A program made the translations under genes and the position numbers. From Patescibacteria group bacterium (lineage in GTDB: Bacteria > Patescibacteriota > Patescibacteriia > JACRDY01), in contig JBAZFH010000001.1 of NCBI GenBank assembly GCA_041653535.1, forward strand, positions 6,052 to 70,051: a DNA stretch of 64,000 nucleotides. Reading direction: 5' to 3'. Below, piece after piece: positions 1,308 through 42,332 of this stretch (its first letter is position 1; each line of letters starts with the position of its first letter). Under the pieces are notes generated by a model. It saw only the letters and a list, made by a program, of their open reading frames with translations. It had not been told where the DNA came from and ran no database searches.

Positions 1308-1458
1308 TTATTAGTCAAAAAGGTATTACGTTTATGAGTACGTGGTACCTTTTTGTTTATCCTAATCATTGGCTTGATTATTATTTATTACTATGTTAAA
1401 TTTAACTATTCAAGATTATTGACAATAAACAACCTAATATTTGAAGGGGGGGATAAAA

Positions 1459-2493
1459 ATGAAAACAATTCAGGTAAAAAAACTTTTTCCTGACGCTATT
1501 ATCCCGGCTCGCGCCACCAACGGTGCGGTTGGTTTTGACGTTTATGCCTATGGTGTTTTGGATATTGAAACCAAGGAGTACGGTGGCGAATTGCCTTATG
1601 TATTAGATCCCGGGCAGAAGATTTTGATCGGTGTTGGCGTGGCCTTCGCTTCGCCTTGGCCGGTTGAATGTCAGGTGCGACCGCGTAGCGGACTTGCTAA
1701 TAAGTATGGTATTGAACTGGGTAACTCCCCGGGAACTGTTGATCCGGATTTTCGCGGCAACGTCGGAGTGCTGCTGCGCAACCGCAGCGATGCGCCATTT
1801 GTCGTGACCAAAGGCATGCGTATCGCTCAGCTGATTTTTTCCGAGGTACAAATTCCAGTCTTTGAAGAAGTCAGTGATCTACCGCCGACTAGACGAGGAG
1901 CCGGAGGGTTTGGCTCTACCGGTTTATCGGATATTTCGGAAGGGACCGAAGCGTATCGTCTGGCGGTCATCGAACGCGATGTTTTCTATATGAAAATGGC
2001 GATCGCTGCTTCTGATCGTTCTACCTGTGTTCGTGGTTGCATTAAAGATGCCGAAGGAAGATATTTGCTTGATAAACGAGGTCGACCAATCGGTCAAACT
2101 CGAAAATTTGGTTGCGTTATTGTCAAAGAAGACAACGTGGTTTCTTTCGGCTTTAATGCTCAAGCACCGGGTATGCCAGCTTGTCTTGAAGTCGGTTGTT
2201 TGCGTGAAGCTGAAGGCATTCCTTCAGGCATGCGGATTGAACGTTGTCGGGCGGTGCACGCAGAAGAAATGGCATTTCTCAAAATGCTGGTTAGCGGCGT
2301 GGCCTCATCGACGTTGGGAGCCACTGCGTATGTTACTGCCGAGCCTTGCGAAGTTTGCGCTAAGACTCTCGCTGGCTCGGGCATCGATACTCTGGTAGTG
2401 ATGGAGGGTGTTTATCCTAACAACGGAATTCAAATCGTAAAAAATGCCGGTATTAATCTTCGTTTTGTTCCCAAAGCAATGTTAGTCTGTTAG
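1459..2493 (+). CDS. dut: bifunctional dUTP diphosphatase (N-terminal) fused to dCMP/CMP-type zinc deaminase (C-terminal)
   Basis: RBS GAAGGGGGGG then ATG at 1459. All five dUTPase motifs are present (VGFDVYA, RPRSG, GTVDPDFRG, GMRIAQL, RRGAGGFGSTG). The C-terminal half carries HAEEMA and PCEVCA zinc-binding motifs of the cytidine/dCMP deaminase fold. Confidence 0.75.
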   Translation: MKTIQVKKLFPDAIIPARATNGAVGFDVYAYGVLDIETKEYGGELPYVLDPGQKILIGVGVAFASPWPVECQVRPRSGLANKYGIELGNSPGTVDPDFRGNVGVLLRNRSDAPFVVTKGMRIAQLIFSEVQIPVFEEVSDLPPTRRGAGGFGSTGLSDISEGTEAYRLAVIERDVFYMKMAIAASDRSTCVRGCIKDAEGRYLLDKRGRPIGQTRKFGCVIVKEDNVVSFGFNAQAPGMPACLEVGCLREAEGIPSGMRIERCRAVHAEEMAFLKMLVSGVASSTLGATAYVTAEPCEVCAKTLAGSGIDTLVVMEGVYPNNGIQIVKNAGINLRFVPKAMLVC

Positions 2494-2709
2494 TCTGAAA
2501 TAAACAACAAACGAAGCCGCTGATACTAGTGATCGGCGGTTTTTTTAATTATTCACTGCATGACCGGACATTTCAAAACGGGGCGTGAAGGTAATGTGGG
2601 GGAGGATGTCATTGTTTAATTTTATTATTAATTTAAATATAAAATTGTTTGACGGTTGAGTGTTTTCTTGCTAATCTTTATTTTATGGCAATGAGTATAA
2701 TTGCGTTTT

Positions 2710-8653: not shown

Positions 8654-9025
8654 ATGAAACAACATGTTAGGTCTTTTACTGGTTTAATATCTTGGCAGGA
8701 GGCCCGTAGGCTGACACTGAGCGTTTATCAAGCGACCAGTTTATTTCCAAAAAATGAGATATATGGTTTGACTAGTCAAATGCGTCGTGCGGCAGTGTCG
8801 GTCTGTTCTAATATAGCCGAGGGTTTTTCTCGAAAATCACGGGCGGAAAAAATACAATTTTACACCATAGCCAAGAGTTCTTTAACAGAATTGCAAAATC
8901 AGCTTATTATTTCTCTTGATGTTCATTATTTAGACAAAGAAGTTTTTCAAAGAATTTCCCTAGTATCCGTTGGCTGTTGTAAGCTGTTGTCAGGTTTGAT
9001 TCGCACTGCTGAAAATAAGCAGTAA
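8654..9025 (+). CDS. four-helix-bundle protein (TIGR02436 / 23S rRNA-IVS protein family, Avd-like)
   Basis: Hallmark LTSQMRRAAVSVCSNIAEG motif. The gene sits between a 17-bp perfect inverted repeat (8531-8547 and 9044-9060). Confidence 0.75.
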   Translation: MKQHVRSFTGLISWQEARRLTLSVYQATSLFPKNEIYGLTSQMRRAAVSVCSNIAEGFSRKSRAEKIQFYTIAKSSLTELQNQLIISLDVHYLDKEVFQRISLVSVGCCKLLSGLIRTAENKQ

Positions 9026-14496: not shown

Positions 14497-14866
14497 GTAG
14501 GAGCTAAAAATAAAGCTTGTCCACGATTTTAAATATATGCGTAAAAATAACCTAATCAATAACGTTCTAGGCGGCTAGCAAGGAAATTTTTGTGCTATAT
14601 GGGACCGCTTAGAAGGCGGTTTTTTTAGTCAGCAGTAGAAAGCGAGTATTTTAACCTTTAGTGACTAAATGAAAATGACTCAGAGTCGTTTGGTCAGTGA
14701 AGGCTAAAGAGAAACGGAAAAACCGAACTTTAACAATTGAATCGAGGAATAATATTCCAACGTCAAAATGAAAATATAATTTTCGTCAAATTACGAAGAA
14801 GTAATATTAGAGAGTCTAATTAAAAAAATACATACTAAGCAAGGATTGTGTTTTCACAATTCTTGT

Positions 14867-18098
<3,232 letters not shown>

Positions 18099-18169: not shown

Positions 18170-18280
18170 TCCTGGTGCTTCCAGCAAGAGGGCCACACCT
18201 GTTTCCATTCCGAACACAGAAGTTAAGCCTCTTAGCGCCGATGATACTTAATAAGGGAAAGTAGGTCAGCGCCGGGACAA
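18170..18280 (+). rRNA. rrf: 5S ribosomal RNA
   Basis: CCTGGTGcttccagcaagagggccacacctgtttccattccgaacacagaagttaagc... matches bacterial 5S. Flanking processing stem ggtgatattgtcc/ggacaatgtcacc. Confidence 0.85.
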
Positions 18281-20239: not shown

Positions 20240-22531
20240 ATGTATCATTTTAAAACTATTCAAGACATCGACATTTCTTACAAAAAAGTTTTACTCCGTG
20301 TAGCGCTCGATATCCCGCTGCGGCACGGCAAAGTAGCCGAAGATTATCGCATTAGACAGATACTGCCAACGCTTGCCTATTTGCTCAAAAAAAATTGTAG
20401 CGCGGTGATTGTTACTTGGCTCGGTCGACCTGATGGCAAAGTGATGGAAGAATATCGGCTCGACCCGGTAGCAAAACGTTTGTCGCAGCTGATCCGTCGA
20501 CCTGTAAAAAAAGTAAATGATTGTGTCGGTCCGGAATCGCAAAAAGCGGTTTTTGATTTGGAACCAGGAGAAATATTGATGTTAGAAAATACTCGTTTTC
20601 ATCCTGAGGAAATGAGCGCCGATCCTGATTTTACTCGTCGGCTAGCCGATGGTTTTGATATTGAAGTGTTTGACGGCTTTGCTCAAAGTCACCGCGTTCA
20701 TGCATCGACTACCGGATTACTCGATTATTTGCCGACGGTTTCCGGGTTTTTATTGCAAAAAGAAATGGACGCACTGGGTGGAGTCTTGCATCAGCCATCT
20801 CGTCCATTGACTTTGATCATTGGCGGTGCCAAAGTTTCCGACAAAATCGGCCTGACGGCTAATTTGATTTCCAAAGCCGACAAGGTTTTGATTGGCGGAG
20901 TTTGTGCTAGCGTTTTTATCAAAGCTCGCGGTCAAGATGTGGGGCAGTCTTATCTAGCCGATGTTTTCGTGAATCAAGCCAAAAAAGGTGGTAAAAAAGA
21001 TTATTTTGCTATCGCCAAATTTTTGCTCAAAAAATATCCAAACAAAATAATGTTGCCACTCGACATGATTGCTGCCAGTGATAAAAAGGGGACGAAAACC
21101 AAGGTGGTTGATTTGGTTACCGATGACATTCCCAAGGGTTGGTCGTTTTTTGATATCGGTCCGGAAACGGTAAAAATGTTTGCCAAACAAATCAATCGCA
21201 GCAAAACCGTACTCTGGAACGGCCCGATGGGAATGTATGAAAATAAGAAATTTGAAACCGGTACTGCTAGTTTGGTTAAAGCCGTAGCTGGTAGCGACGC
21301 TGTTTCTATCGGTGGCGGTGGCGACACTGAAGAGTTGATCGGCAAATACGGTCTCGCTGGCAAGTTTTCTCATGTTTCTACCGGTGGCGGAGCGATGTTG
21401 GAATTTTTATCCGGTAAAAAACTGCCGGTACTCGAAGCAATGGTAAAAAATCAGCACAATATCAGGCTTTGGCGACTCGGACCAAAACCGGTTGTTGCTT
21501 TTACCAAGGAAAACAATCCGTATTTTCGTTATCCTTTCCATAACCTCAAAGAAATTCTTGGCCCGGCGCAAAGAAATAAATTTGGCGTGCCGGCTTGTAA
21601 CATTCGTTCCAAATATATTTTGGACGCTGTACTGCAAGCGGCTTTTGAAGAGCGTTCTCCGGTAATACTCGAGATAGCCGAGTCGGAGATGGGATATTGC
21701 AATATTCCTCCCGAGCGGATGATCGATCTGGTTTTGGAGCGACTGCCAAAATTGGAAAAAAAGTTTGGCTACCGCGTTCCTGTTTGTCTGCATGCCGATC
21801 ATATGCAAAAAGATTTACTCCTAGCAGAAAGAGCGATGAAAGCCGGATTTTCCTCGGCGCTGATTGATCAGTCAGCTTATCCGCTGGACTACAATATTTC
21901 AGTGGTCAGATCTTTTGTCCAAAAAGCGCACCCGCTCGGTATTACGATTGAAGGTGAAATCGGTCAGATCGGTCAAGGAATGTCTGGCAAAGGTCAATTG
22001 GTTGGTAAAGATGTTCTAACGCATGCGCCGTCGGTGCATGAAGCGGTTGAATTTATTTCCCAGACGGGAGTCGATGCTTTTGCCGGATTTTTTGGCAACT
22101 ATCACGGTAAGTACGAAAAAGAGGCAACTATCGTTTGGCCGCGGATCAAGCAAATTGATAAACAGATCAAAAAAAGAGTTTGGACTGTGCCGATAGTTTT
22201 ACATGGTACCAGTTATCTGCGTACCAAAGACTTTGATCATATCAAGGTGTATCACCAGGCAATCAAATGCGGTATGCACAAGTTTAATTATGGAACGATG
22301 CTTTCTGATATTTTTAAAGACTATTTGCCGCAAAAGTTGGTAGACAAGATGGACAATTTTGCCGAGGGCGGCGAAGAAAATTGGAAAAAAGGACTGGGAC
22401 ATTATGAAAAAGAAATCGATGCGCTAGATCCAGCGGTACTAAAAAAAGCCGTAGATGGTATCAAAAAGCATGTCAAAGAGATGATGAAAAAGGCGTGGTA
22501 TTGTTCGGGAAAGGTGAAGTTATACAAATAG
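20240..22531 (+). CDS. pgk: fusion protein: phosphoglycerate kinase (N-terminal, about 400 aa) + class II fructose-bisphosphate aldolase (C-terminal, about 360 aa)
   Basis: N-terminal Pgk motifs (KKVLLRVALDIPL ... STGGGAML). C-terminal class II FBA motifs (LHADH, ALIDQS, EGEIG, GFFGNYHG, LHGTS). Single uninterrupted 763-aa ORF. Confidence 0.8.
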   Translation: MYHFKTIQDIDISYKKVLLRVALDIPLRHGKVAEDYRIRQILPTLAYLLKKNCSAVIVTWLGRPDGKVMEEYRLDPVAKRLSQLIRRPVKKVNDCVGPESQKAVFDLEPGEILMLENTRFHPEEMSADPDFTRRLADGFDIEVFDGFAQSHRVHASTTGLLDYLPTVSGFLLQKEMDALGGVLHQPSRPLTLIIGGAKVSDKIGLTANLISKADKVLIGGVCASVFIKARGQDVGQSYLADVFVNQAKKGGKKDYFAIAKFLLKKYPNKIMLPLDMIAASDKKGTKTKVVDLVTDDIPKGWSFFDIGPETVKMFAKQINRSKTVLWNGPMGMYENKKFETGTASLVKAVAGSDAVSIGGGGDTEELIGKYGLAGKFSHVSTGGGAMLEFLSGKKLPVLEAMVKNQHNIRLWRLGPKPVVAFTKENNPYFRYPFHNLKEILGPAQRNKFGVPACNIRSKYILDAVLQAAFEERSPVILEIAESEMGYCNIPPERMIDLVLERLPKLEKKFGYRVPVCLHADHMQKDLLLAERAMKAGFSSALIDQSAYPLDYNISVVRSFVQKAHPLGITIEGEIGQIGQGMSGKGQLVGKDVLTHAPSVHEAVEFISQTGVDAFAGFFGNYHGKYEKEATIVWPRIKQIDKQIKKRVWTVPIVLHGTSYLRTKDFDHIKVYHQAIKCGMHKFNYGTMLSDIFKDYLPQKLVDKMDNFAEGGEENWKKGLGHYEKEIDALDPAVLKKAVDGIKKHVKEMMKKAWYCSGKVKLYK

Positions 22532-22814
22532 AGTTAGTATATAGTATGTAGTATATAGGGGGGGCGAGAGCCCTCCTTTTTGTGTCCATAGCTTGGCTTA
22601 TAATAGCACAAAAATTGTTTAATTTTAGGCAAATTATAGGTTAAATGATTTACAAGAATAGCGTTTTATGCTATGATTACATATTAATTTACAGGAGGTC
22701 ATTTACAATACAATTAACCAAAAATTTTTTGAGATGGGCGTTTTGGATACTATTTTTAGTATTTAGAACGCTCGTCTCAATTCCGGGACGGCATCTATGG
22801 AAAGGAGGGCGATC

Positions 22815-23591
22815 ATGGCTCAGCCAATGACGTCCGAACAGGAAAGGCAGATCAAGAGGTTCTTCGAAGATGCTCTCATCGGTCTCGGATTGACGAAGGA
22901 CCAAGCGCAAACCCTGATTACTTCCGGCGGAGAGTTCCAGCAAGAAGTGAAGGATCTGATGCTGGCTTTCGTCACCGGAAAGCAGGTGTACAAGTTGGCC
23001 CGCGCCATTCTCGGGAACGATTTCATCACCCCCGAAGAGGTGGCCAAGACCCGCGGCATCACCTACACCGAAGAACAGCTCCGTCAATTCAGCAACACCC
23101 TTCCCAAGGTCGAAGTGCTCCAGTGGCTCCGCGAACACGGCTACATGCTGGTTCCCGGACCGGCCAACCCCATCGCGTTACTCGACATTCGCGTCATGAA
23201 CGCCACTTACTTCTACAGCAAGGAAGGCGGTTGGTACGCGAATGACAGCGAGAAGTTCTCGCGCGATGACAAGGCGGCGGTCAAATGGCTCGCTGTCCGC
23301 AAGGACATCGTACCCGACTCCACCAGCAAAACCTGGGAAGAGCAAACGGTGCTTCTGTCGTCCGACGAGTACGTCCCGAACGCCGGTGAATTCGCCTGGG
23401 CCATCACCACGTACTACGCCGTTCGTGGCATCTACCTGTTCCCGGGTCTCTACGCCCGCACCTCTTCCGTGGGCTCTGACGGCGGTCGCGTCGATCTGGG
23501 CGATTTCGGCTCGAGCGGCCTGCGCGTCGACTACTATTTCGACGACAATCGCTCTGGCGATCTCGGCGTCGCTTCGGCCCGGAAGTTGTAG
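22815..23591 (+). CDS. hypothetical protein encoded in a high-GC (about 60%) island
   Basis: RBS AAGGAGG + 7 nt + ATG at 22815. Strongly GC3-biased codons unlike neighbours. Many spurious overlapping ORFs on both strands, typical of high GC. Terminator hairpin ggctcaacttcggttgagcc at about 23673-23702. Confidence 0.5.
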   Translation: MAQPMTSEQERQIKRFFEDALIGLGLTKDQAQTLITSGGEFQQEVKDLMLAFVTGKQVYKLARAILGNDFITPEEVAKTRGITYTEEQLRQFSNTLPKVEVLQWLREHGYMLVPGPANPIALLDIRVMNATYFYSKEGGWYANDSEKFSRDDKAAVKWLAVRKDIVPDSTSKTWEEQTVLLSSDEYVPNAGEFAWAITTYYAVRGIYLFPGLYARTSSVGSDGGRVDLGDFGSSGLRVDYYFDDNRSGDLGVASARKL

Positions 23592-23774
23592 GACTTCGGT
23601 TCTCGGCTTCTTGTCCCTTTTGGATTTTTGGTCTTCCGCCACGCAGTGGCGGTCGCGATAAAATCGCAATCACGGCTCAACTTCGGTTGAGCCTTTTCTT
23701 TTTTGATAAATTTTTAAAGGTAAGATGTGGCGGAATTTTTTTATTTCCGAGGATATGTTAAACTACTAAACACT

Positions 23775-25049
23775 ATGCAATATATCGCCGATCTACATAT
23801 TCACTCCAAATATTCTCGAGCCTGCAGCCCGCAGCTGACGCTGGAAAATATCAGCAAGTACTGCGCCATCAAAGGCGTTGACGTGGTAGCAACAGGGGAC
23901 TTTACCCACCCGATTTGGTTTAAAGAAATAGAAACTAAACTGGTCGAAGACGGGAGTGGAATCTATAAACTGAGAAATGCCGATGACAAAACGCGTTTTG
24001 TTTTGAGTACGGAGATTAGCTGTATTTATTCCAAGAGTGTTCCAGGCCAAAAAGAAGGATCAAAAAAAGTTCGTCGGCTGCATATTGTTGTTTTGGCGCC
24101 GGATATTGATACGGTAAGAAAGATAAATGAGACTCTTGGTAAAATCGGCAACCTGCGTTCCGATGGTCGGCCGATACTTGGCCTAGACGCCAAGCGACTA
24201 GCGCAAATAGTTTTTGATATCTCACCTCGCTGTATGGTAATCCCGGCGCACGCCTGGACACCGTGGTTTGCGGTATTTGGTAGCAAGTCCGGATTTGATT
24301 CGCTGCAAGAATGTTTTGAAGAGTACACGGATAAAATTTATGCGATTGAAACAGGACTATCTTCCGACCCGCCAATGAACTGGCGACTGTCAGCTCTTGA
24401 TAATGTCGCTCTGATTTCGAACTCCGACGCACATTCACTACCTAATATCGGCCGCGAAGCTAACGTGTTTGATTTGCCGGAACTAACTTACGACCAGATT
24501 TGCGATGCGATAAAAGATAAAGATAAAAAAAGATTTCTTTATACCATAGAGTTTTACCCCGAAGAGGGGATGTATCACTTTGACGGTCATCGGGATTGTG
24601 CCGTTTGTTTACCGCCAAGCGAGACTAGAAAACAAAAAGGTGTTTGTCCAAAGTGCAAAAAATATTTAACTGTGGGGGTGTTAAGTCGCATCGAAGAGTT
24701 GGCTGATCGACCGGAAGGGTTTATGCCGCCAGAGGCGATACCTTACAAAAGCTTGGTAGAACTAGACAAAATTATTGCCGAAAGTTTAAACATCAAATCT
24801 CGTCAGTCAAAAGGCGTACAGAGTGAATACGATAATTTGGTGAAAAAGGGGAAAAACGAAATGAATGTTTTATTAAACCTTGATTATAAGGAACTAGAAA
24901 AAATTACATCTTCAAAAATAGTTGAAGGCATCCGCCGTGTTCGTGAGGGAAAACTGATTATCCGCCCCGGATTTGACGGACAGTACGGAAAAATAGAAAT
25001 TTTTTCTCCGGCAGAGCGCGAAGAAAGTTTTCAGAAAAAACTACTTTAG
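23775..25049 (+). CDS. Endonuclease Q (EndoQ)-like PHP-domain nuclease with C-terminal Cys4 zinc finger
   Basis: N-terminal ADLHIHSKYSRA ... VVATGDFTHPIW (PHP metal site). C-terminal CAVCLPP ... CPKCKK zinc ribbon. The roughly 420-aa length matches archaeal/Bacillus EndoQ. Confidence 0.6.
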   Translation: MQYIADLHIHSKYSRACSPQLTLENISKYCAIKGVDVVATGDFTHPIWFKEIETKLVEDGSGIYKLRNADDKTRFVLSTEISCIYSKSVPGQKEGSKKVRRLHIVVLAPDIDTVRKINETLGKIGNLRSDGRPILGLDAKRLAQIVFDISPRCMVIPAHAWTPWFAVFGSKSGFDSLQECFEEYTDKIYAIETGLSSDPPMNWRLSALDNVALISNSDAHSLPNIGREANVFDLPELTYDQICDAIKDKDKKRFLYTIEFYPEEGMYHFDGHRDCAVCLPPSETRKQKGVCPKCKKYLTVGVLSRIEELADRPEGFMPPEAIPYKSLVELDKIIAESLNIKSRQSKGVQSEYDNLVKKGKNEMNVLLNLDYKELEKITSSKIVEGIRRVREGKLIIRPGFDGQYGKIEIFSPAEREESFQKKLL

Positions 25050-41435: not shown

Positions 41436-42332
41436 TTAGACCGATTGTTGGTTGTAGCGTCGCACGTAGAGTGTTGGCGCCCAGGGGCGCAGGAGAAAGA
41501 TCGAGCCAAAGGTCACGGCCTTAGCGCCCTGTTTTTCCGCCTTAGCGATGTCTTGGTAAGACCAGATGCTCGGCCAAACGGTTGGCATGATTTGGCTGAG
41601 TTCACTCGCCATTTGCCAGGTAAGATGCTGGACAATTTTTCCCGACACACCGCCACCACCGAAGTGATCCAGCGGGCTAGTTCTGCTAGGAAAAGCGTAG
41701 CGCCAGGGGACCGAATTGATTTGCACTGCCTCGGCGATGCCAGATAGAGATGTGGCCGTAAGTAGGTAGTTTTTTTGCGGGTCATAGCCAAGTTTGATCA
41801 GCAGTGGCAGGCAAGTTAGTTCTTTTACTTTTCGGCAGGTGGCGACAAGGTCGGTAGGCAAGCCGCATTCTTGGACGTTGGGACAAGAAATATTGATCTC
41901 GATGCCAACAATTTTCTTGCTGCTTAGCTTGCCGTCAGCCATTTCTTGTTTGATTACCGTCGCCATATTTTCTAGCTCTTGGTTGCTACCAAAAATCGAG
42001 ATGACGACTGGTAGGTCGCTCGGAATTTTTGGCGCGTGTTTTGCTAGCCAACCATTGATGCCGGGATTACGCATGCCGACAGCGTTAACTGTACCATGTC
42101 GCAAAACCCTTACGGTTTTGACTAGCCCGACGCCTTGGCCATTTCCGGCTCGCGGATTTTGTGTAATGGTTTTGAGAACGACGGTAAAGAGATTTGGTTG
42201 TAGCAGGTTAACCCAATGCAGTGGTGCCTCCCATGACCAACCGCGGCCGTCAAAACCGAGTGCGCCAGAAGCAACGATAAATTTGAGCTCGTGGTCGTTT
42301 GATAGAGTGATGCCGTTAATTTTTGTTTGCAT
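41436..42332 (-). CDS. dihydroorotate dehydrogenase family flavoprotein (PyrD-like)
   Basis: IEINISCPN and GGGGVSG motifs of the DHOD/DHPD TIM-barrel family. RBS AAAGGAG. Confidence 0.6.
   Translation of the reverse strand: MQTKINGITLSNDHELKFIVASGALGFDGRGWSWEAPLHWVNLLQPNLFTVVLKTITQNPRAGNGQGVGLVKTVRVLRHGTVNAVGMRNPGINGWLAKHAPKIPSDLPVVISIFGSNQELENMATVIKQEMADGKLSSKKIVGIEINISCPNVQECGLPTDLVATCRKVKELTCLPLLIKLGYDPQKNYLLTATSLSGIAEAVQINSVPWRYAFPSRTSPLDHFGGGGVSGKIVQHLTWQMASELSQIMPTVWPSIWSYQDIAKAEKQGAKAVTFGSIFLLRPWAPTLYVRRYNQQSV

Follow-up and report, generated by a model that had tools for sequence, protein, structure and literature searches.

A 64,000-nucleotide stretch of a Patescibacteria group bacterium genome (GenBank contig JBAZFH010000001.1, positions 6,052 to 70,051; hereafter the window) carries a gene in which a trimeric-type dUTPase is joined in one reading frame to a zinc-dependent domain resembling the dCMP deaminases. 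The fusion is real, conserved and uncharacterised, and it combines known enzymes rather than constituting a new kind of system. We document here the identities of the two domains, their intact catalytic motifs, their conservation, the selection acting on them and the pathway context of the gene, and we think it moderately probable that the protein is a bifunctional enzyme of thymidylate precursor supply, converting dCMP to dUMP alongside dUTP to dUMP. Fusion of pathway neighbours is common, and Patescibacteria have reduced genomes that depend on nucleotide salvage.

The gene is a single uninterrupted open reading frame (ORF) that encodes 344 amino acids between an ATG at 1459 and a TAG at 2491–2493, and the sequence, read directly, has neither a stop codon nor a frameshift at the junction of the two halves. 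A single-ORF fusion had been proposed in a first-pass annotation made from the sequence alone, and it is borne out by an independent Logan assembly of run SRR18595300, which matches the window at 100% identity along 5,217 bp, junction included. Because this assembly is identical and at least 120 homologues are likewise fused in one ORF, an artefact of assembly or frameshifting can be ruled out. The GenBank entry for the protein lies on a 347-kb contig and is labelled "MAG: dUTP diphosphatase [Patescibacteria group bacterium]".

The N-terminal half is, by its motifs and family scores, a trimeric-type dUTPase, and its model has the dUTPase beta jelly-roll fold. The five motifs of a complete enzyme, which the first-pass annotation had described, are all present: I, GAVGFDVYA (aa 22–30); II, RPRSGLA (aa 74–80); III, GTVDPDFRG (aa 92–100); IV, RIAQ (aa 121–124); and V, RRGAGGFGSTGL (aa 145–156). 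All five are kept across 116 aligned family members, the set to which all conservation counts given here refer; motif III (DPDFRG) has Phe where Tyr is usual (Phe in 107, Tyr in nine). The half matches the Pfam dUTPase family PF00692 (aa 13–155, E = 7e-25, 87.7 bits against a cutoff of 22) and scores above the cutoffs of the NCBIfam dut equivalog NF001862 (135.9 bits; cutoff 103) and of TIGR00576 (131.8 bits; cutoff 102.55). In a Foldseek search of the PDB, this half of the AlphaFold2 model superimposes on solved dUTPases with a template modelling (TM) score of ~0.9 and a root mean square deviation (rmsd) of 1.2–1.6 Å, and the best 50 matches are all dUTPases (TMt 0.8–0.94, rmsd mostly 1.2–2 Å).

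Sequence profiles and the structural model place the C-terminal half within the dCMP deaminase (DCTD/ComEB) clade, as a divergent representative. It matches Pfam dCMP_cyt_deam_1 (PF00383; aa 213–315, E = 6e-16, 58.6 bits, cutoff 25), and the zinc ligands that had been pointed out at first reading, HAE (aa 267–269; nt 2257–2265) and PCxxC (PCEVC, aa 296–300; nt 2344–2358), are in place and essentially invariant, with H267, E269, P296 and C300 in all 116 relatives and C297 in 115. The clade signatures considered are those of Iyer et al. 2011 (PMC3239186) and Slyvka et al. (PMC12088426). In DCTD, strand 2 ends in a G(Y/W)N(A/G) motif that forms part of the allosteric site and contains a sugar-contacting Asn (PMC12088426), and the G-(F/Y/W)-N-(A/D) motif of the fusion (G231-F-N233-A in the window protein) corresponds to it; G231 and N233 are invariant, position 232 is Phe in 66, Tyr in 43 and Trp in seven, and position 234 is Ala in 74 and Asp in 33. 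The cysteines of the second zinc site are in the expected places (C190, C242 and C247 in 116 of 116, C263 in 115), and the site appears to be all-Cys rather than two Cys and a His. The TxxxT motif of strand 3 is T289-A-Y-V-T293 in the window protein (first Thr in 97 of the family; Asn in 70 and Thr in 46 at position 293), and the Tyr between strand 4 and helix 4 (Y319) is present in 114. We describe the domain as divergent because the clade motifs are mostly present while the Asn of the HAExNA signature is missing, the ComEB equivalog cutoff is not reached, and there is an insert.

Comparisons with other deaminases point the same way. In a profile search of the PDB the best matches are dCMP deaminases, whose alignments take in almost all of the domain (profile positions ~57–181): those of T4 (2e-16), cyanophage S-TIM5 (1e-13), Streptococcus mutans (3e-12) and human (7e-9). 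The matches to TadA (positions 109–158 only), RibD and the cytosine/guanine deaminases are confined to the HAE–PCxxC core. Foldseek places dCMP deaminases in ranks one to nine for the deaminase half (TMt 0.70–0.85), with TadA at ~0.55 and the PBCV-1 bifunctional dCMP/dCTP deaminase (7FH4) in 18th place. The hidden Markov model for TadA (NF008113) gives only 20.1 bits against a cutoff of 150, and the TadA identity, which the first-pass annotation had named as a possible refutation, is rejected on this score, on the core-only alignment, on the fold comparison and on the presence of the ComEB-type second-zinc cysteines; RibD, with 25 bits against a cutoff of 156 and a match to the core alone, is rejected as well.

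The architecture is conserved. In a search of 5.8 billion proteins, the 120 best homologues all have both Pfam domains in one protein of about 335–358 aa, down to 53% identity, and the family amounts to at least 120 clusters when grouped at 90% identity and to about 14–18 at 50%. The named sources of these 120 are nearly all metagenome-assembled genomes of Patescibacteria/Parcubacteria, with one Pseudomonadota and one "bacterium", and their public label is dUTPase only. The deaminase half alone, searched against 1.84 billion 50%-identity representatives, has 4,798 matches, 15 of them at E < 1e-30, and these 15 are almost all fusions of 334–382 aa. Among species-representative genomes, full-length fusions occur in Paceibacterota, Falkowbacteria and other unclassified Patescibacteria. 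Genomes with the fusion include the closed chromosome OY969803.1. No viral two-domain counterpart was found: the best 80 IMG/VR matches are dUTPase-only, one candidate (L189) is a plain dUTPase, and no BFVD model matches both domains (best TMq 0.40). Comparison of the window gene with four relatives gives saturated proportions of synonymous differences (pS, 0.65–0.85) and low proportions of nonsynonymous differences (pN) in both the dUTPase core (0.10–0.18) and the deaminase core (0.13–0.21), and both halves are therefore maintained by purifying selection.

The junction itself is conserved in length. The linker (Table 1) shows no length variation in the 116 sequences, and G162 is invariant (116 of 116) and T163 nearly so (105). 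AlphaFold2 models the full-length protein with a predicted local distance difference test (pLDDT) score of 88.5 and a predicted TM score (pTM) of 0.66, and the deaminase half alone with 90.4 and 0.86 respectively. Because a single long helix is predicted over aa 164–185, we read the linker as a probable N-terminal extension of deaminase helix α1, beginning ~7 residues past motif V. The model is soft only in the motif V arm, which is unsurprising for a domain-swapped element modelled as a monomer. With so short a spacing and a rigid helix, each deaminase domain would have to sit beside the lid of a dUTPase active site, and the assembly would probably be built around a shared three-fold axis, as a dUTPase trimer bearing three deaminase domains; these trimers might in turn dimerise to give a DCTD-like hexamer of deaminases.

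A second family feature is a basic insert of 22 aa between helix α1 and strand β1 of the deaminase. The region containing it (aa 191–219) has a constant length of 28–29 aa with a mean of 7.4 Lys/Arg against 3.1 Asp/Glu, it is bordered by near-invariant residues (R192-G193 on one side and R215-x-F217-G218 on the other), and the insert is modelled at a pLDDT of ~90. Short proteins that might pass for stand-alone deaminases bearing the insert are mostly fragments, since they begin within motif V (P0122, P0131 and P0133) or at an internal Met (P0121), and P0126 is the sole one that might be a real stand-alone deaminase.

Relatives of the window gene can be arranged in a series. At one end are unfused genes, with dut followed by a ComEB-like deaminase gene and a P-loop kinase gene (L008, from Saccharibacteria, and L027), or in the order deaminase, dut and ThyA-like gene (L162). 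Separate adjacent genes are likely the ancestral state, and because relatives hold dut and the deaminase gene in this way, the fusion appears to have arisen by the joining of adjacent operon genes for dUTPase and a ComEB-like deaminase. Intact fusions account for 54 unique sequences among the loci fetched, all with every catalytic and zinc ligand present. Fusions with a dead deaminase domain occur in six lineages (L007/L157, L145, L146, L149, L150 and L151); these have lost HAE and/or PCxxC, the 22-aa insert (in all of them) and the second zinc loop, and they keep a deaminase-fold remnant of 125–140 aa and the linker motif G[TD]xx[YF], as well as dUTPase halves with family-level scores (206–277 bits). 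The retention of catalytically dead domains implies that the deaminase fold also has a non-catalytic, probably structural, role, and the loss of the insert together with the catalytic residues suggests that the insert is part of the catalytic apparatus. At the other end of the series, a Staskawiczbacteria locus (L006) has a dUTPase ending in "GSTGLFEIEKG" followed by a separate canonical DCTD-like gene (with GYNG and HSEMNAI), which suggests that the fusion was split secondarily. As a test of compensation, we note that a stand-alone deaminase lies near one of six dead-domain fusions, against seven or eight of 56 loci, although the sample is small.

In relatives, the fusion gene keeps the company of thymidylate genes. 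We took 56 dereplicated loci and clustered, without prior labels, every ORF lying up to 4 kb from the fusion; the counts are lower bounds because just 33–42 of the loci have at least 1–3 kb of downstream sequence. A dTMP kinase gene (166 bits; cutoff 83) lies near the fusion in 15 of the 56. Nine have an archaeal-type ThyA-like gene, which follows the fusion on the same strand at a median distance of 112 bp, six have a gene for a (d)CMP-kinase-like P-loop kinase, and ThyX-like, SHMT and DeoC genes occur in four each. A stand-alone ComEB-like deaminase accompanies the intact fusion in seven or eight loci, and a MutT/NudG-like NUDIX gene is found in five distinct loci (six locus identifiers, as L002 and L082 are one contig). 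The other recurrent neighbours are L11 (16 of 56), NusG (14), GyrB (11) and GatB (11). One example is a closed 516-kb chromosome (L082) with the order L11, ComEB-like deaminase (177 aa), P-loop kinase, fusion, dTMP kinase, MutT/NudG-like NUDIX and ThyA. The recurrence of thymidylate genes beside the fusion argues that it is tied to thymidylate synthesis, and the earlier suggestion that both activities feed dUMP to this pathway fits the presence of dTMP kinase, ThyA or ThyX, and SHMT genes next to it.

Several of these neighbours have features of their own. The ThyA-like proteins are divergent, with the archaeal thy_syn_methano as best model at 74–85 bits, under its cutoff of 174, and one of them has 477 aa with a long N-terminal extension; their labels are putative, and a dUMP or dCMP hydroxymethylase is an alternative identity. 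The stand-alone deaminases beside the intact fusion all have GY(I/V/T)G, without the sugar-contacting Asn, and retain H(A/S)ExNA, and one subtype has a further 10-aa insert before PCxxC. The stand-alone paralogues thus keep HAExNA without the motif Asn, and the fused ones keep the G-aromatic-N Asn without that of HAExNA, so that the two appear to have diverged in complementary ways. In one locus (L096), the stand-alone ComEB-like deaminase is broken after 'HAEQN-C' by an intein-like insertion of ~480 aa ending in '...VHN|C'. A different architecture is found in P0165, P0204, P0222 and P0256, proteins of ~320–355 aa with an N-terminal P-loop kinase (AAA_17/AAA_18) and an insert-less dCMP deaminase domain; these recall the AvcD-type anti-phage deaminases but are shorter, and in loci of the Candidate Phyla Radiation (CPR) the two domains are encoded by adjacent genes.

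We favour, with moderate confidence, the interpretation in which the two domains supply dUMP in parallel, because all the closest relatives of the deaminase act on dCMP, dut stands next to a ComEB-like gene in the ancestral operon, the G-aromatic-N motif has been kept, and the NUDIX protein encoded in five loci could provide dCMP. The N-terminal homotrimeric-type dUTPase would convert dUTP to dUMP and pyrophosphate, which would also keep uracil out of DNA, and the C-terminal zinc deaminase would convert a deoxycytidine nucleotide to the matching deoxyuridine nucleotide. Its substrate would most likely be dCMP, as the first-pass annotation had assumed, yielding dUMP directly, and the neighbouring NudG-like NUDIX could make this dCMP from dCTP. 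The dUMP from both domains would then pass to thymidylate synthase and dTMP kinase.

There are six points that weigh against parallel dUMP supply. First, the Asn of HAExNA, in which 'NA' two residues past HxE is a signature of the clade (Iyer et al. 2011, PMC3239186), is never seen in the family; position 271 is Trp in 62, Met in 37 and Tyr in nine of the 116 relatives, with Ala272 kept. Second, the NCBIfam ComEB equivalog scores 45.4 bits, short of its cutoff of 219. Third, the basic insert is found neither in human DCTD nor in the stand-alone CPR paralogues, so that in this respect the fusion is unlike the characterised dCMP deaminases. Fourth, there are no thymidylate genes within the 64 kb of the window, and the fusion gene has therefore left the thymidylate cluster in this genome. 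Fifth, a second ComEB-like deaminase beside the intact fusion is unexpected if both proteins deaminate dCMP. Finally, parallel, non-consecutive reactions offer no obvious kinetic reason for a tight fusion of fixed length.

The last of these would be accounted for if the reactions were instead consecutive, with the zinc deaminase acting on dCTP (or on both dCTP and dCMP, as in chlorovirus PBCV-1) to give dUTP and the fused dUTPase converting this to dUMP, in a non-homologous two-domain analogue of Dcd:Dut that keeps the toxic intermediate local. We regard this as a possible alternative, although appreciably less probable than parallel supply. The classic reason for fusing two enzymes is that one makes a harmful intermediate which the other consumes, and DCTD-fold enzymes that use dCTP do exist, in PBCV-1, phage XP-12, human CDADC1 and the anti-phage deaminases (PMC12088426, PMC12184417). 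The triphosphate specificity of CDADC1 involves added Lys/Arg residues together with T333, K337 and T338, and by spacing these three residues fall in the helix 1–strand 1 loop, the loop that holds the basic insert in the fusion. The insert is gone in the six relatives without catalytic residues, as a component of the catalytic apparatus might be, the conserved linker tethers the deaminase ~7 residues past the motif V lid, and a separate ComEB-like deaminase stands beside the intact fusion in seven or eight of 56 loci. However, the nearest relatives by sequence and structure are dCMP-specific, with PBCV-1 bi-DCD no higher than its 18th structural rank and CDADC1 at 1e-4 in the profile search, and with NF041025, the model for anti-phage dCTP deaminases, the fusion reaches 43.8 bits where 400 are required. 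In a register inferred from motifs, the lysines that precede the conserved Tyr in CDADC1 (K450 and K452) have V314 and L312 as their counterparts. The allosteric-type G-aromatic-N motif is kept, and dCTP is normally an activator of DCTD and not its substrate; moreover, the ancestral operons couple dut with an ordinary ComEB-like gene. An extended form of this proposal, which we put forward tentatively, is that the insert and the position beside the motif V lid have retooled the deaminase for dCTP, giving a channelled route from dCTP through dUTP to dUMP that would have arisen separately from Dcd:Dut and be unrelated to it in mechanism, and that the fold has become obligatory in this dUTPase lineage; dead copies would then be retained for that reason.

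A further alternative is that the deaminase-fold domain serves the dUTPase mainly as a structural or regulatory element (an oligomer scaffold, a nucleotide sensor or a control on the motif V arm), with catalysis secondary or dispensable, and we consider this improbable. It would explain why six independent relatives keep the fold and linker after losing the catalytic motifs, the insert and the second zinc loop, while their dUTPase halves still score at the family level, and CDADC1 offers a precedent in an inactive deaminase domain kept as a scaffold (PMC12088426). Nonetheless, all catalytic and zinc ligands are intact in the window protein and in 54 unique relatives, and selection constrains the deaminase core as strongly as that of the dUTPase; scaffold and catalysis may both hold, but with every catalytic residue intact a structural role is unlikely to be the whole story for the window protein. 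That the C-terminal half is instead a different deaminase (TadA, RibD-type or cytosine/guanine), or the ORF an artefact, is highly implausible, the weak TadA and RibD matches to the HAE–PCxxC core and the superficial resemblance of 'HAEEMAF' in the fusion to the TadA motif 'HAEIMAL' being outweighed by TadA and RibD scores far under cutoff, the DCTD-like fold, the second-zinc cysteines and the identical independent assembly.

In the window the fusion gene is flanked by a DUF5666 gene upstream and a methionyl-tRNA synthetase gene, and because there are terminator-like hairpins on both sides (Table 1) it is an isolated transcription unit. Its GC content is above that of its flanks (0.49, with a mean of 0.434 and standard deviation of 0.051 for the ORFs of the window), and GC at third codon positions (GC3) is 0.427, the ORF mean being 0.426. 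We reject horizontal transfer, to which the higher local GC might point, because 0.49 is not anomalous and GC3 is at the mean. The first-pass annotation had also linked the fusion to an EndoQ homologue ~21 kb away, as a shared emphasis on uracil and deaminated bases, and this link is not upheld: its sole support is that both lie in the same 64 kb, and the fusion gene is an isolated transcription unit. The ORF in question has a TIGR00375 score of 173 bits, below the cutoff of 326.6, and a PHP_C match, and it fits a PHP-domain, EndoQ-like nuclease.

Other features of the window merit brief mention. A 763-aa ORF combines a phosphoglycerate kinase (aa 7–393, PF00162, E = 4e-125) with a class II fructose-bisphosphate aldolase (aa 435–752, PF01116, E = 8e-58), an unusual glycolytic pairing. 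At 3,231 nt, the 23S rRNA match is longer than its 2,925-nt model and therefore has ~300 nt of insertions; a 5S rRNA follows it, there is no 16S rRNA anywhere in the window, and a gene for a '23S rRNA-intervening sequence protein' lies 6 kb upstream of the 23S. A 264-aa ORF with no Pfam match is by far the strongest compositional outlier (GC 0.586 and GC3 0.77, against ORF means of 0.434 and 0.426) and is possibly a recent acquisition. There is also a divergent dihydroorotate-dehydrogenase-like gene, under all equivalog cutoffs, and L082 has one too, 7 kb upstream of its fusion and beside an orotate phosphoribosyltransferase-like gene; these organisms are not known to make pyrimidines de novo, which makes such a gene unexpected.

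Table 1. Positions of the fusion gene, its parts and other features in the window and in related loci
Feature	Sequence	Position	Strand	Remarks
Terminator-like hairpin closing upstream DUF5666 gene	Window	1316–1355	+	Parts DUF5666 gene from fusion gene
Shine-Dalgarno-like purine run GAAGGGGGGG	Window	1443–1452	+	6 nt before ATG; read from sequence
dUTPase-deaminase fusion ORF	Window	1459–2493	+	Identical in independent assembly (L001); GenBank MFA5358206.1
Trimeric-type dUTPase domain (predicted), aa 1–156	Window	1459–1926	+	PF00692, NF001862, Foldseek, motif conservation
Linker, aa 157–172	Window	1927–1974	+	Fixed length
Zinc-dependent deaminase domain (predicted), aa 173–344	Window	1975–2490	+	PF00383; dCMP deaminase/ComEB clade
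Family-specific basic insert, aa 194–214	Window	2038–2100	+	Between helix α1 and strand β1
Terminator-like hairpin and T-run	Window	2513–2550	+	Hairpin at 2513–2543; 20 nt past stop codon; RNA fold −16.6 kcal/mol, z = −3.0
23S rRNA-intervening sequence protein gene	Window	8654–9025	+	PF05635, E = 4e-33
23S rRNA match	Window	14866–18096	+	
5S rRNA	Window	18171–18277	+	
Phosphoglycerate kinase-aldolase ORF	Window	20240–22531	+	763 aa
Compositional outlier ORF	Window	22797–23591	+	264 aa
EndoQ-like ORF	Window	23727–25049	+	
Dihydroorotate-dehydrogenase-like gene	Window	41436–42332	−	
Dead-domain fusion	L145	9986–10846		282–310 aa (all six)
Dead-domain fusion	L146	10001–10849		
Dead-domain fusion	L149	10478–11347		
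Dead-domain fusion	L150	9995–10888		
Dead-domain fusion	L151	9941–10873		
Dead-domain fusion	L007/L157	9995–10909		
dUTPase gene, putative secondary split	L006	9977–10480		
DCTD-like gene, putative secondary split	L006	10592–11176		
ThyA-like gene (putative)	L103	11029–11853		
ThyA-like gene (putative)	L082	12122–12790		
ThyA-like gene (putative)	L162	9945–11378		
Stand-alone ComEB-like deaminase	L082	8827–9360		
Stand-alone ComEB-like deaminase	L090	8490–9050		
Stand-alone ComEB-like deaminase	L103	12053–12574		
Stand-alone ComEB-like deaminase	L105	72–599		
Stand-alone ComEB-like deaminase	L112	11093–11656		
Stand-alone ComEB-like deaminase	L123	1918–2481		
Stand-alone deaminase with intein-like insertion	L096	4085–6070		
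Dihydroorotate-dehydrogenase-like gene	L082	3013–3933		
Orotate phosphoribosyltransferase-like gene	L082	2216–2893		

The literature, as far as it was searchable, gave no account of a dUTPase-DCTD fusion; the nearest entries are Dcd:Dut, the retroviral dUTPase fusions and the baculovirus Tmk-dUTPase. If active as predicted, the protein would represent a third architecture for supplying dUMP at low dUTP, beside separate Dut plus DCTD or Dcd enzymes and Dcd:Dut. It is also a natural experiment on the C-terminal arm of dUTPase, in that the motif V lid, usually mobile, is here tethered to a folded domain, and the series from separate genes through active fusion and dead-domain fusion to re-split gene offers a case study of a catalytic domain becoming structural. 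There are practical consequences too: in well over a hundred database entries the label "dUTP diphosphatase" leaves out half of the predicted function, and metabolic reconstructions may list these organisms, wrongly, as lacking dCMP deaminase.

The 156 N-terminal residues share with the homotrimeric dUTPases (Dut, EC 3.6.1.23) the fold, the five motifs and the equivalog score. However, in Dut the motif V arm usually ends free and flexible and closes a neighbouring active site, whereas in the fusion it continues after seven residues into a 188-aa deaminase domain, and the motif III Tyr usual in Dut is a Phe. With the dCMP deaminases (DCTD/ComEB/T4 cd, EC 3.5.4.12) the fusion shares HxE, PCxxC, the G-aromatic-N-(A/D) motif, the second-zinc Cys, TxxxT and the Tyr after strand 4, but these enzymes are free subunits of 15–20 kDa in a hexameric ring that dCTP activates and dTTP inhibits, while the deaminase of the fusion is joined to a dUTPase, replaces the HAExNA Asn by Trp, Met or Tyr, has the helix 1–strand 1 insert and an apparently all-Cys second zinc site, and stays below the ComEB cutoff. 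The dCTP-acting DCTD-fold enzymes (PBCV-1 bi-DCD, 7FH4; human CDADC1, 9HFQ-T; that of phage XP-12; and the anti-phage AvcD/DCD) have the same deaminase fold, and the basic residues in the insert of the fusion may surround the substrate entrance, in the loop with which CDADC1 contacts the triphosphate; in CDADC1 an inactive deaminase domain persists as a scaffold, which recalls the dead-domain relatives. The dCTP-acting enzymes are nonetheless more distant than the dCMP-specific ones, the CDADC1 lysine positions appear not to be conserved, and no dUTPase is joined to any of them. Retroviral Pol-dUTPase and NC-dUTPase, and baculovirus Tmk-dUTPase (PMC4895240), illustrate that a trimeric dUTPase tolerates fusion partners, even an enzyme of the thymidylate pathway, but the partners are different ones and none has a catalytic domain directly C-terminal to motif V. 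A parallel in possible outcome is Dcd:Dut (EC 3.5.4.30), in which one polypeptide also turns deoxycytidine nucleotides and dUTP into dUMP. The distinction from this enzyme drawn in the first-pass annotation stands, as the fusion scores 34.1 bits with the dCTP_deam model TIGR02274 (cutoff 92.8): Dcd:Dut has one dUTPase-fold domain and carries out zinc-independent deamination in the same active site, whereas the deamination motifs of the fusion lie in a separate, unrelated, zinc-dependent domain.

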